From NCBI RefSeq assembly GCF_016026235.1, contig NZ_CP065613.1: a stretch of 64,000 nucleotides of DNA; one strand, given 5' to 3'. The translations under genes were made by a program, and so were the position numbers. This DNA is from Escherichia coli. GTDB taxonomy: Bacteria; Pseudomonadota; Gammaproteobacteria; Enterobacterales; Enterobacteriaceae. Shown here in pieces: positions 31,055 to 47,589 of the stretch (its first letter is position 1; every line of letters starts with the position of its first letter). The notes below the pieces were generated by a model that made no database searches, was not told the origin of the DNA, and worked only from the letters and a program-made list of their open reading frames with translations.

Positions 31055-31174
31055 ATGTCTGGCAGTTCCCTACTCTCGCATGGGGAGACCCCACACTACC
31101 ATCGGCGCTACGGCGTTTCACTTCTGAGTTCGGCATGGGGTCAGGTGGGACCACCGCGCTACTGCCGCCAGACA
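31055..31174 (-). rRNA. rrfF: 5S rRNA, distal copy of rrnD
   Basis: Reverse complement matches the E. coli 5S sequence over 120 nt with a few substitutions. Confidence 0.93.
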
Positions 31175-31211
31175 AATTCTTTTCTAATCTGCCGAACTTT
31201 AACCTAAAAAG

Positions 31212-31287
31212 TGGTGCTGATACCCAGAGTCGAACTGGGGACCTCACCCTTACCAAGGGTGCGCTCTACCAACTGAGCCATATCAGC
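31212..31287 (-). tRNA. thrV: tRNA-Thr
   Basis: Reverse complement reads GCUGAUAUGGCUCAGUUGGUAGAGCGCACCCUUGGUAAGGGUGAGGUCCCCAGUUCGACUCUGGGUAUCAGCACCA. Confidence 0.93.
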
Positions 31288-31299
31288 ACGCTAAATTTG

Positions 31300-31419
31300 A
31301 TGCCTGGCAGTTCCCTACTCTCGCATGGGGAGACCCCACACTACCATCGGCGCTACGGCGTTTCACTTCTGAGTTCGGCATGGGGTCAGGTGGGACCACC
31401 GCGCTACGGCCGCCAGGCA
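31300..31419 (-). rRNA. rrfD: 5S rRNA, proximal copy of rrnD
   Basis: Reverse complement matches canonical E. coli 5S rRNA (UGCCUGGCGGCCGUAGCGCGG ... GCCAGGCAU). Confidence 0.95.
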
Positions 31420-31512
31420 AATTCTGTTTTATCAGACCGCTTCTGCGTTCTGATTTAATCTGTATCAGGCTGAAAATCTTCTCTCAATCCGCCAAAACAC
31501 CTTCGGCGTTGT

Positions 31513-34412
<2,900 letters not shown>

Positions 34413-34595
34413 TCACAACCCGAAGATGTTTCTTTCGATTCATCATCGTGTTGCGAAAATTTGAGAGACTCACGAACAACTTGCGTTGTTCAGTGTTTCA
34501 ATTTTCAGCTTGATCCAGATTTTTAAAGAGCAAAACTTCGCAGTGAACCTTTGCAGGTACACTCTGAAGTATTTTTTATTTAATCACTACAGAGA

Positions 34596-34671
34596 TGGTG
34601 GAGCTATGCGGGATCGAACCGCAGACCTCCTGCGTGCAAAGCAGGCGCTCTCCCAGCTGAGCTATAGCCCC
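34596..34671 (-). tRNA. alaU: tRNA-Ala (UGC) in the 16S-23S spacer
   Basis: Reverse complement reads GGGGCUAUAGCUCAGCUGGGAGAGCGCCUGCUUUGCACGCAGGAGGUCUGCGGUUCGAUCCCGCAUAGCUCCACCA. Confidence 0.95.
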
Positions 34672-34713
34672 ATAACATGTAGTTAAAACCTCTTCAAATT
34701 TGCCGTGCAAATT

Positions 34714-34790
<77 letters not shown>

Positions 34791-34858
34791 GTAGAGGTTT
34801 TACTGCTCATTTTCATCAGACAATCTGTGTGAGCACTGCAAAGTACGCTTCTTTAAGG

Positions 34859-36399
<1,541 letters not shown>

Positions 36400-44153: not shown

Positions 44154-45530
44154 ATGAAAATTATCATTCTGGGTGCCGGCCAGGTTGGCGGCACACTGGC
44201 GGAAAACCTGGTTGGCGAGAACAACGATATCACTGTTGTCGATACCAACGGTGAGCGTCTGCGAACCTTGCAGGATAAATTTGACCTGCGAGTCGTGCAG
44301 GGGCATGGCTCTCATCCACGCGTATTGCGGGAGGCAGGTGCCGACGACGCCGATATGCTGGTTGCTGTAACCAGTTCAGATGAAACCAATATGGTTGCCT
44401 GCCAGGTAGCCTACTCACTTTTCAACACCCCTAATCGCATCGCTCGTATCCGCTCACCAGACTACGTACGCGATGCCGATAAGCTATTTCATTCAGATGC
44501 TGTACCGATTGATCATCTGATCGCACCAGAGCAGTTGGTTATCGATAATATTTACCGACTGATTGAGTATCCCGGCGCATTGCAGGTGGTGAACTTCGCT
44601 GAGGGTAAAGTCAGCCTCGCTGTGGTTAAAGCCTATTATGGCGGCCCGCTGATTGGTAATGCACTTTCGACCATGCGCGAACATATGCCACATATCGATA
44701 CTCGTGTGGCAGCAATTTTCCGCCACGATCGCCCCATTCGTCCGCAAGGTTCAACCATTGTTGAGGCTGGTGATGAAGTGTTCTTTATTGCCGCTTCACA
44801 GCATATCCGCGCGGTGATGAGTGAATTACAGCGACTGGAAAAACCGTATAAGCGGATCATGCTGGTTGGTGGCGGTAATATCGGTGCAGGGCTGGCGCGT
44901 CGTCTGGAAAAAGATTACAGCGTTAAACTCATCGAACGTAATCAGCAGCGCGCTGCCGAACTGGCGGAAAAGTTGCAGAATACGATCGTCTTTTTTGGTG
45001 ATGCGTCGGATCAAGAACTGCTGGCCGAAGAACATATCGATCAAGTTGATCTGTTTATTGCCGTCACCAACGATGACGAGGCCAATATCATGTCCGCCAT
45101 GCTTGCCAAACGTATGGGTGCGAAAAAGGTGATGGTATTGATCCAGCGTCGCGCTTATGTGGATCTGGTTCAGGGGAGCGTGATCGATATTGCGATTTCA
45201 CCACAACAAGCAACTATTTCTGCGTTGCTTAGCCATGTGCGAAAAGCAGATATTGTTGGTGTTTCCTCATTGCGCCGCGGCGTAGCAGAAGCTATTGAAG
45301 CCGTTGCTCACGGTGATGAAAGCACCTCACGCGTTGTCGGCAGAGTCATTGACGAAATCAAGCTACCGCCAGGAACGATTATTGGAGCGGTGGTACGTGG
45401 AAACGACGTGATGATTGCCAATGACAATCTGCGCATTGAGCAAGGCGATCACGTAATTATGTTCCTCACAGATAAAAAATTTATTACCGACGTCGAAAGA
45501 CTCTTCCAGCCAAGCCCTTTCTTCTTGTAA
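44154..45530 (+). CDS. trkA: Potassium uptake protein TrkA (tandem NAD-binding domains)
   Basis: 458 aa; [19 protein letters not shown] and a second Rossmann repeat [13 protein letters not shown]. Confidence 0.95.
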
Positions 45531-45534
45531 TTAA

Positions 45535-45562
45535 TAAGGCGTCTAATGACGCCTTATTATTT
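45535..45562 (+). terminator. Intrinsic terminator after trkA
   Basis: taaggcgtctaatgacgcctta hairpin followed by a T-rich tract. Confidence 0.65.
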
Positions 45563-45866
45563 CCCTTTGATTATCAAGGATTAATTAAATTCATTCCTGG
45601 CAGGAAAATGGCTTAACATTTGTTAGACTTATGGTTGTCGGCTTCATAGGGAGAATAACATGAGCATTATTAAAGAATTTCGCGAATTTGCGATGCGCGG
45701 GAACGTGGTGGATTTGGCGGTGGGTGTCATTATCGGTGCGGCATTCGGGAAGATTGTATCTTCACTGGTTGCCGATATCATCATGCCACCTCTGGGCTTA
45801 TTAATTGGCGGGATCGACTTTAAACAGTTTGCTGTCACGCTACGCGATGCGCAGGGGGATATCCCC

Positions 45867-47149
45867 TGAGGGATCCCCAGAAAATTTAGTAAACCATTAT
45901 CATATTGGTATACCGTTGCTGTAGAACTTTCAGCCCTGCGTCAAGTGACAGTGTGTTTAGTATGAGTGGAGAATGTCGAATCACATTCTCCGCCAGTTTT
46001 AATAACGAGATGACTCGCCTGTGCTTCACTGTATTTGCCTGATATTTATGATGTATCCCTTTGTTTTCCAGGCTGAAACCGCTTAACCACATAATGATAC
46101 TGGCTAATGTTGCGATCAGACTCAATACCGTGACCCGCCCAGATGAATGACTGGCACCAAACCGTAGTCCAAATCCCCAGCGAGGATTTTTTTCATCCCT
46201 GAAATTTTGCTCAATTTGCATTCTACGGCTGTATAATTTCATTACCTGTTTTGGCGAGAACTCAGTACTGTTTGTGAAAATAAACCATGGTGATTTCCCG
46301 GCAGTACGAGCTTTAGCCGTCACCGATGGTCTGGTTGCTCTTTCCTTCGAGCGTTTAAATCTACGACCTTTAGGCTTACTTTTATAAAGATAAAAATGCC
46401 CTTCATGTTGTGCATTTTTATCTCGACCCAGCAGGCCTTCACCTAAATAAATTGCTGTCGTTGATGCTTTTGTGCCTGAGTCCGACACCTTTTCCCAGCC
46501 ATTACCAACATTGTAATAATGATTGCCCAGTACCCGGCAAATATAGGTCCAGCCACGGGAGCGGAGCTGTTGGAACCATCGCCCCTGAAAACCGGCATCT
46601 GTAATAACAATGACATCAGTCCCGGGGGAAAAGCACTCAGCAAGCGATTCCAGAAAACGCTCATGTACATCTGCATTCGCTGTCTGTGATGATGGAACGA
46701 CACAACTCATCAACGGTAAAGAACGCCCGTCACATGCCAGGCTTGCCCGCAAAAGCTGAAAACGAGAGGCATGATAAGCACTCCAGTCAATGAGTATCAC
46801 AACACGAGACATTCCCCGCGTAATCTTTTGGGTAATTCGCTGAAAAATGGTGGAAACCTCATTTTGCAAATGTCGATTCCCCAACAGTCGATCCACCCGC
46901 TTTATTTTGTTTTTAACTGATGCCGTACCGGTTAAATGACGCCCGATACTGGTAAGTGTGAGGGAAGCGCCATTTATTACAGCATTAGTTGCGTCAATCA
47001 GTGATTTTTGACGGTAAAGATGCAAAGGGGCCAGTATGTTGTTAAGGAAATTTTGGCATAATGAACGTGCAGGCATAGTGGTGATCTCCTTGAAATTGTT
47101 AGCACAATCAATTAGATCACATCTCACTATGCCTGTCTTGTTTTCTGGG
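45867..47149 (-). mobile_element. IS4-family (IS10-like) insertion sequence, about 1283 bp, with terminal inverted repeats and a 9-10 bp target-site duplication
   Basis: Left end CTGAGGGATCCCCAGAAAA versus reverse complement of right end CTGAGGAATCCCCAGAAAA (18/19 match); flanking direct repeat GGGATATCCC at 45857-45866 and 47150-47159; single transposase ORF inside. Confidence 0.88.
45886..47076 (-). CDS. IS4-family DDE transposase
   Basis: 396 aa from [10 protein letters not shown] with [25 protein letters not shown] and [15 protein letters not shown] (Y-2-R-3-E-6-K) motifs resembling the IS10 transposase but clearly diverged. Confidence 0.88.
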
Positions 47150-47370
47150 GATTCCTCAGGGGATATCCCTGCTGTTGTGATGCATTACGGTGTCTTCATT
47201 CAAAACGTCTTTGATTTTCTGATTGTGGCCTTTGCCATCTTTATGGCGATTAAGCTAATCAACAAACTGAATCGGAAAAAAGAAGAACCAGCAGCCGCAC
47301 CAGCACCAACTAAAGAAGAAGTATTACTGACAGAAATTCGTGATTTGCTGAAAGAGCAGAATAACCGCTC

Positions 47371-47589
47371 TTAACAAGCGCCTGAAAGCAGAAGACCAGT
47401 GGTAAAAAAGTGATTTACTTTCTTGCCACTGGCCTCCCAGTTCCCCCGATTGCCATGTTTTCCTTTTCGCATGTAACTACCTTTCCCTTTCTTATTTTTC
47501 TCTACGCGCTGTCGGAATAAGGGATCATGTAGTAATGCTTCTATCGCATTATCCTTTATCTGCCCTTTAGTATGCTGATATCGGCTCAT
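47371..47589 (-). CDS. arfA: Alternative ribosome-rescue factor A (YhdL)
   Basis: 72 aa [72 protein letters not shown]; 3' end overlaps the mscL stop. Confidence 0.92.
47384..47424 (-). promoter_or_regulatory. Stem-loop in the 3' part of the arfA ORF (candidate RNase III processing hairpin)
   Basis: Inverted repeat ccagtgg ... ccactgg flanking an A/T-rich loop inside the last ~15 codons; arfA mRNA is known to be processed to a non-stop transcript. Confidence 0.45.

Follow-up and report, generated by a model that had tools for sequence, protein, structure and literature searches.

An ISEc60 insertion sequence splits mscL in Escherichia coli at a palindromic site that appears to be a recurrent target of the element

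The window analyzed here, a 64,000-nt stretch of an E. coli genome, contains the conserved gene order trkA-mscL-arfA-zntR, in which mscL is split by an insertion sequence. The neighboring genes are intact: trkA lies upstream, and arfA runs toward mscL and overlaps its stop codon. The features of the locus are listed below, with positions numbered from the first letter of the window.

45660..45865, + strand: mscL 5' fragment, codons 1–68 and the first two bases of codon 69
45856..45865, no strand: left target-site duplication GGGATATCCC, a perfect palindrome of 10 bp, present as one copy in intact mscL
45866..47159, - strand: insertion sequence ISEc60 (IS4 family, 1294 bp), with 99.9% identity from end to end to annotated ISEc60 copies
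45866..45884, + strand: left terminal inverted repeat CTGAGGGATCCCCAGAAAA, at the transposase 3' end, with a GATC (Dam) site
45886..47076, - strand: intact transposase coding sequence, 396 aa (NF033591, DDE_Tnp_1, catalytic residue alignment)
47069..47136, no strand: long hairpin followed by a U-run on the outward (+) strand, -32 kcal/mol, z = -5.4
47111..47119, - strand: putative transposase promoter, inferred from the extended -10 TGATCTAAT with GATC overlap and a possible -35 AAGACA 17 bp upstream
47141..47159, - strand: right terminal inverted repeat CTGAGGAATCCCCAGAAAA, at the transposase 5' end, without GATC
47160..47169, no strand: right target-site duplication GGGATATCCC, 10 bp, from the sequence as read and flank comparison
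47160..47374, + strand: mscL 3' fragment, from G66 onward: last part of the periplasmic loop, then TM2 and the C-terminal helix

Both the sequence and the list of open reading frames place the start of mscL at 45660, from where the gene reads MSIIKEF...RDAQGDIP for 69 codons and then stops. The open reading frame extends to 45869, with the IS terminus CTGA supplying the last C of codon 69, i.e., its third base, and the TGA stop codon that follows. This 5' fragment encodes the N-terminal helix, TM1, and most of the periplasmic loop. Genuine mscL sequence restarts at 47160; position 47150 corresponds to a RefSeq-style fragment start, the frame being open from within the IS. Indeed, the frame of the 3' fragment stays open back into the element, where in-frame ATG codons occur at 47036 and 47129. 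The insertion position corresponds to codons 66–69, at the Gly66-Asp67 turn of the periplasmic loop (the loop is described in PMC13174807). Pfam MscL matches are on record for both fragments, and RefSeq labels the equivalent fragments in strain FDAARGOS_943 as pieces of an mscL pseudogene.

We deleted the IS and one repeat in silico, which gave a 411-bp open reading frame with a 136-aa product identical to WP_000022442.1, the intact MscL of strain PS10-3. The restored gene differs from the PS10-3 allele by two nucleotides, both synonymous, and intact mscL contains GGGATATCCC once only. A preliminary description of the locus, made from the sequence alone, had an IS splitting mscL after 69 codons, with a flanking direct duplication that is itself a perfect palindrome, and proposed aligning both flanks to an intact mscL. 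Both claims were borne out: the alignment restored a perfect gene and fixed the junction and the 10-bp duplication, with GGGATATCCC on both sides.

The terminal inverted repeats match at 18 of 19 positions, as first described, and only two matches to their pattern occur in the 64-kb window, compared with 0.02 expected by chance; the same search revealed no second copy of the IS in the window. The element was initially estimated at ~1283 bp; the insertion is real and its true length is 1294 bp. Its transposase is identical to WP_001111632.1 of FDAARGOS_943, scores 360.5 bits against NCBIfam NF033591 (IS4 family transposase; cut-off 152), and matches Pfam DDE_Tnp_1. When aligned with the transposases of IS10A and ISSfl1, residues D97, D160, and E289 are invariant, as is the signature Y282-R285-E289-K296 (Y-(2)-R-(3)-E-(6)-K). 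A PDB sequence search with the transposase returned no match at E ≤ 0.01, Tn5 transposase included. With an intact transposase and both inverted repeats, the IS looks competent for transposition. The initial impression that the locus has undergone no further decay is likewise confirmed by the flanks, which restore a perfect mscL, by the intact transposase, and by the 0–1 nt that separate the IS from other copies in FDAARGOS_943 and CFSAN029787-related strains of the same lineage.

The identity of the element was established by megablast of the IS against 5,426 complete E. coli genomes. Full-length copies at 99.9% nucleotide identity, e.g., in E. coli CFSAN029787 and FDAARGOS_943, are annotated as “IS4-like element ISEc60 family transposase.” By RefSeq/PGAP naming, the element is ISEc60, a catalogued IS of the IS4 family, and the name rests on these PGAP-annotated copies. 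A literature search for ISEc60 turned up two passing mentions and no account of its target specificity. IS4-family transposases are defined in part by the YREK signature in region C1 (PMC2266710), and the window element combines the DDE/YREK residues, terminal inverted repeats, and ~10-bp duplications of this family. The IS10 subgroup is described by a length of 1200–1350 bp, 5'-CT ends, YREK, and 9-bp direct repeats (De Palmenaer et al., 2008, Table 1; PMC2266710). ISEc60 agrees with this description in its size (1294 bp), its ends (CTGAGG... on both sides), and YREK, and departs from it in the direct repeat (10 bp, and 11 bp at two copies), a 9-bp repeat being a typical trait of the subgroup rather than a strict criterion. 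Its transposase shares 35–36% identity with those of IS10A and ISVsa5 and 52% over the full length with that of ISSfl1; in a tblastn search against plasmids, IS10A and ISVsa5 were recovered as clear homologs (36% identity over 93% of the length, E ~1e-64). On these sequence comparisons, the element appears IS10-subgroup-like, and “IS10-like” is a fair description of its termini and architecture, with membership left unasserted. The original label of an IS10-like element therefore holds at the level of the subgroup and for the similar ends and not as an identity, the element being ISEc60 with a transposase 35–36% identical. IS10 itself, as an IS10R or IS10L isoform, was ruled out by this amino acid identity and by its different length, duplication length, and target consensus.

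Copies at other E. coli sites, all with the fixed ends CTGAGG...CCTCAG, were used to define the target of ISEc60. They are flanked by the 10-bp duplications GGGATAACCA (an intergenic site that abuts ampH), GGGATTTTCC, GGTAAATCCC, GGGGAAACCC, and GGGATAACCT. Duplications of 10 bp were found at six sites with both flanks known, and 11 bp in two copies at one plasmid site. An exact-match scan with the left end of the element added ~20 further independent sites from metagenome contigs, and 25 independent sites, with mscL excluded, yielded the consensus GGG-N4-CCC, with ~8 bits of information. Just outside this core, there is usually a G on the left and a C on the right, i.e., G/GGG-N4-CCC/C, where slashes mark the core boundaries. 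The symmetric consensus fits a 10-bp stagger. Boundaries of the mscL insertion that would give 8-, 9-, or 11-bp duplications were ruled out, because the ends are fixed at other sites and the consensus is symmetric about the 10-bp stagger. At one plasmid site, ggcGGGGATTTTCCCCgcc, different plasmids carry the element in opposite orientations, and the large plasmid pCFSAN029787_01 carries two tandem copies with a single GGTAAATCCC between them; this pair is a re-insertion into a duplicated target.

We also scored the window, emptied of the IS, with a weight matrix built from the 25 sites without mscL. The mscL site ranked first among all 10-mers on both strands, and the emptied window contains only 14 GGGNNNNCCC sites. 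IS10, by comparison, makes 9-bp duplications at NGCTNAGCN (PMC4574204). The symmetric target preference that the preliminary description had noted, as for IS10-type transposases, thus stands insofar as the target is symmetric and palindromic; the rule itself, GGG-N4-CCC with 10 bp, is not that of IS10. It was also observed that relatives with a common 19-nt terminus appear to have switched among different small palindromic targets.

The distribution of the insertion was examined in complete genomes and public assemblies. In FDAARGOS_943, the corresponding region differs from the window at 4 of 9,919 bases, and in RefSeq it is annotated as an ISEc60 transposase gene with an mscL pseudogene fragment on either side; the IS copy in the window is 1 nt from the FDAARGOS_943 copy, and at least 38 places in that genome match the IS. 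Strain 2023CK-01509 shares this junction, including the orientation of the IS. Over a 9.9-kb region of that strain, 66 of the 8,625 bases outside the IS are not the same as in the window; the closest of these lie 48 bp from the left end of the IS and 133 bp from its right end. The IS copy in mscL of 2023CK-01509 is 14 nt from the window copy and 0 nt from the two other copies of that strain, one of which abuts ampH and the other lies on a plasmid. Because the copy at mscL is the strain's own variant, this insertion is best explained as an independent event in which a resident variant of the IS entered at the identical nucleotide.

An exact-sequence look-up showed that the 69-aa stub is indexed in 124 blocks of public assemblies. 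Among the matches listed, four (L012, L013, L017, and L018) have the haplotype of the window. Others have the same junction and orientation on different flanks: L014 has flanks 2.7% divergent, although the 133 bp of IS that it contains show 0 differences, L016 has 34 flank differences from the window, and L015 and L019 have 27–28 each. The same junction therefore occurs on at least three flank haplotypes besides that of the window, placing ISEc60 at the identical mscL position on at least four, in one orientation throughout. The mscL::ISEc60 junction reads GGGGGATATCCC/CTGAGGGATCCCC, and the flipped form would read ...CCC/CTGAGGAATCCCC. In the look-up, the 65-aa C-terminal product of the flipped orientation was not on record. 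A 64-aa C-terminal product is common, but none of the 10 matches listed represents a flipped ISEc60. Instead, the 64-aa form arises where the same 12 bp of mscL have been altered by frameshifts, by a small deletion, or by entry of an IS3-family element that duplicated 3 bp (CCC); in other assemblies, the G-run in these 12 bp has a length of 4, 6, or 7 G compared to 5.

These comparisons do not agree with the earlier view of a one-off insertion, as the same site is hit in several divergent lineages. Judged from these sequences, the mscL site is a hotspot of ISEc60 that would have been struck repeatedly in different E. coli lineages, and independent hits at this position are accounted for because the site is the region's best match to G/GGG-N4-CCC/C. 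The single orientation at a palindromic core is mildly unexpected for independent hits and leaves room for spread by recombination, an orientation bias, or selection.

The end of ISEc60 at which the transposase starts also contains a putative regulatory layout. Ten relatives, from genera that include Photorhabdus, Serratia, and Kosakonia, keep the hairpin at 47069..47136, and two of its pairs show compensatory changes; on the transposase-sense strand, one of its arms spans the Shine-Dalgarno sequence and the ATG. It may act as a fold-back block to translation in read-through transcripts, as an RNA-OUT-like antisense stem-loop, or as both; on the outward strand, it appears to resemble an RNA-OUT-type stem-loop and terminator. 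Fold-back inhibition of transposase translation has been described for IS10. The extended -10-like motif TGATCTAAT lies 42–49 nt inside the right end and is conserved as TGTGATCTA in relatives. The near terminus (47159, on the side of the transposase start) reads GGAATCCCC, without GATC, and the far terminus reads GGGATCCCC, with GATC. By analogy, a layout of this kind, with Dam GATC in one repeat and in the putative promoter and with a hairpin over the start, would resemble IS10 regulation. An Rfam scan of the region at E ≤ 1 detected neither RNA-OUT nor another relevant family. A sub-threshold match to the Rfam family Histone3 falls on the trkA terminator hairpin and was dismissed as chance. 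A generic promoter and terminator scan did not call the putative pIN and pOUT; it called the trkA terminator and internal sites without clear meaning.

As a whole, the locus is best explained by transposition of an ISEc60 copy into mscL, a reading that we consider very probable. Following the paradigm of IS4, IS10, and Tn5, the transposase would have made cuts staggered by 10 bp around GGGATATCCC at codons 66–69; cut-and-paste DDE transposition would have joined the element to this site, and gap repair would then have duplicated the 10 bp. The interrupted gene would produce a 69-residue stub. Since this stub has TM1 only, and 1.3 kb has come to lie between the promoter and the part for TM2 and the C-terminal helix, MscL is almost certainly inactive, which supports the initial expectation of a non-functional channel. 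E. coli normally has a single mscL. A strain with MscS only survives osmotic downshock about as well as the wild type (PMC10082366), and on the basis of this near-wild-type survival MscS and MscK would probably cover downshock at a small fitness cost; the suggestion that MscS-type channels are left as the downshock valve is thus reasonable.

The recurrence at mscL might alternatively descend from one ancestral mscL::ISEc60 insertion, with the haplotype spread by homologous recombination and gene conversion among IS copies. Consistent with a single origin, every junction found is in one orientation, where independent hits on a palindromic core predict that about half be flipped, and the ~390 bp beside the IS in L015 and L019 match the window exactly. 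We nevertheless regard it as unlikely, given that the flanks of 2023CK-01509 differ so close to the IS on both sides (48 bp and 133 bp), that its IS variant is the strain's own (0 compared to 14 differences), and that it has only two chromosomal IS copies. In L014, moreover, divergent flanks surround an IS end without differences; two carriers on unrelated backgrounds occur among the 14 complete genomes with a full-length IS match, a set that includes relatives at 82–86% identity; and no other target in the window scores as high as the mscL site. Recurrent insertion could also reflect positive selection for MscL loss in combination with target preference, e.g., through less aminoglycoside entry or MscL toxicity. 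MscL can be harmful in the absence of low-threshold channels (PMC10082366), and the same 12 bp are also broken by the G-run changes and by the unrelated IS3-family element; yet the best ISEc60 target in the window suffices for recurrence, and the G-run variants may be sequencing errors. A role for selection is accordingly improbable in our judgment. Much the same doubt attaches to the more general proposal that codons 66–69 are a convergent inactivation hotspot, where the recurrence and fixed orientation would reflect selection for MscL loss in some host-associated E. coli lineages beyond the target rule.

The remaining alternatives concern the insertion itself and its effect. ISEc60 is multi-copy in the closest genome, i.e., at 38 or more places in FDAARGOS_943, and repeats of this kind can cause misassembly, so that a repeat-induced misjoin might have placed an IS copy in an intact mscL. 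Such an artifact is barely conceivable in view of the perfect 10-bp target duplication on both sides of the element and the presence of the same junction in two finished genomes and in short-read contigs of independent samples that end inside the IS. The split gene might still give a two-piece channel, with the N-half expressed from the mscL promoter and the C-half from an IS ATG (47036 or 47129) on outward transcripts. Park et al. reportedly reconstituted mechanosensitive channels in vitro, in 2004, from separately purified N- and C-halves of MscL, and the window offers some features in favor: the N-half stops exactly at P69 with zero foreign residues, and the C-terminal frame extends uninterrupted into the IS, where it contains ATG codons. 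However, most outward transcripts would stop at the strong hairpin and U-run that lie shortly before the end of the IS, the promoter scan called no promoter for them, the C-half would bear 10–42 foreign residues, and both pieces are pseudogene fragments in RefSeq; a working two-piece channel is therefore very unlikely. Inactivation of MscL by transposition of ISEc60 remains the preferred reading.

In itself, this insertion is of little importance, being a routine IS knock-out of a dispensable gene. The knock-out is ordinary and the insertion already known, as it is annotated in RefSeq for a near-identical genome. What the analysis adds of interest is the GGG-N4-CCC/10-bp rule, the evidence that mscL contains a recurrent hotspot, and a regulatory layout like that of IS10. 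With the target rule, sites of ISEc60 insertion become predictable, and the rule accounts for the recurrent mscL null allele, which could serve as a lineage marker and offers a natural mscL knock-out for studies of osmotic downshock or MscL-dependent drug entry. The 10-bp duplications at GGG-N4-CCC palindromes also caution that “IS10-like ends” need not mean IS10 rules, and target switching among relatives could make a tractable subject for work on how IS4-family transposases choose their target sites.

Three known elements provide points of comparison. IS186, an IS4-family element of E. coli, also inserts at palindromic targets of G-runs and C-runs (GGGG-N6/7-CCCC) with duplications of ~10–11 bp; the spacer of its target is longer than that of ISEc60, and IS186 was absent from the relatives of the transposase found by tblastn in plasmids. 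ISSfl1, an IS4-family element of Shigella flexneri, is the closest named relative recovered and has the same DDE/YREK spacing, but it is a separate element in which about half of the transposase residues are changed. IS10 is slightly longer, at 1329 bp compared to 1294 bp for ISEc60, and the Rfam RNA-OUT model finds no match in ISEc60. The two further differ in the length of the duplication (10 bp in ISEc60 and 9 bp in IS10) and in the target (GGG-N4-CCC and NGCTNAGCN, respectively; PMC4574204). ISEc60 nevertheless resembles IS10 (IS10R/IS10L of Tn10; IS10A, ISVsa5) in many respects: both its ends begin 5'-CTGA..ATCCCC, it falls in a similar size class, and it has a DDE + YREK transposase and a symmetric target preference. 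The likeness extends to the putative regulatory features, i.e., a GATC in the terminus far from the transposase start with none in the near terminus, as at the inside and outside ends of IS10, another GATC within the putative promoter, and a hairpin that covers the start of translation.

Within the window, an open reading frame starts inside ISEc60 and continues into the remnant of mscL that lies beyond it:

47036-47374, + strand: 112-aa open reading frame, starting antisense to the 5' end of the transposase gene and running out across the terminus of the IS and into the 3' fragment of mscL

Two in-frame ATG codons are present in this frame, at 47036 and 47129, and an 81-aa version of the same frame appears in some public gene calls. 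This reading frame is the sole route to the C-terminal half of MscL and is probably meaningless.

Disruptions other than ISEc60 were observed in other assemblies (L146-L155) within the same 12 bp of mscL, corresponding to window 45853-45866. The run of five G residues in mscL comprises four, six, or seven G in some of these loci, resulting in frameshifts that may be either real or homopolymer errors. One locus (L150) has a deletion in mscL between two GCGATGCGC repeats, while another (L151) carries an IS3-family element, with ends TGTTGTGGTCAA...TTGACCACAACA, within the mscL palindrome and with a 3-bp CCC duplication.

The neighboring trkA gene is intact in the window. In L012, a public-assembly locus (GCA_900449985.1) that is otherwise identical to the window across 6.2 kb and contains the same mscL insertion, a one-base insertion at the equivalent of window 44838 splits trkA into two ORFs (232 and 223 aa); this split may be a homopolymer error of that assembly. 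An Rfam 'Histone3' match at 45513-45558 (- strand) was sub-threshold, with 18.4 bits versus a gathering score of 34, and was rejected as a chance match to the terminator-like hairpin (45532-45559) between trkA and mscL. The window also contains an rRNA operon, the arrangement of which is rrnD-type:

31057-36399, - strand: complete rRNA operon (16S, two tRNAs, 23S, 5S, tRNA, second 5S)

The match to the Rfam family StyR-44 at 34420-34528 lies within the operon's 16S-23S spacer, just upstream of the 23S gene.

The loci L008, L005, L006, L007, and L011 informed the following observations on ISEc60. On pCFSAN029787_01 (L008, 65318-67211), there is a tandem ISEc60 pair with a single 10-bp GGTAAATCCC between the copies, an arrangement produced by re-insertion into the target duplication. 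Different plasmids carry ISEc60 in opposite orientations at one site, ggcGGGGATTTTCCCCgcc, where the duplications measure 10 or 11 bp.

A scan of genome contigs (L021-L117) showed that the 19-nt terminus CTGAGGRATCCCCAGAAAA is common to related insertion sequences in Photorhabdus, Xenorhabdus, Serratia, Pragia, Kosakonia, Arsenophonus, and Erwinia dacicola. The small palindromes adjoining these elements vary by sub-lineage (CCGC-N3/4-GCG, CCC-N4-GGG, or GGG-N4-CCC), which suggests that target specificity has switched within one IS group. A related 1295-bp insertion sequence with the same terminal 19 nt is present in E. coli E69 (L040; CP089930.1, 5077-6371). The overlap between the two flanking sequences, CCCCTTATGG and CTTATGGGGG, is just 7 bp, so the duplication length of this element appears to differ from that of ISEc60.
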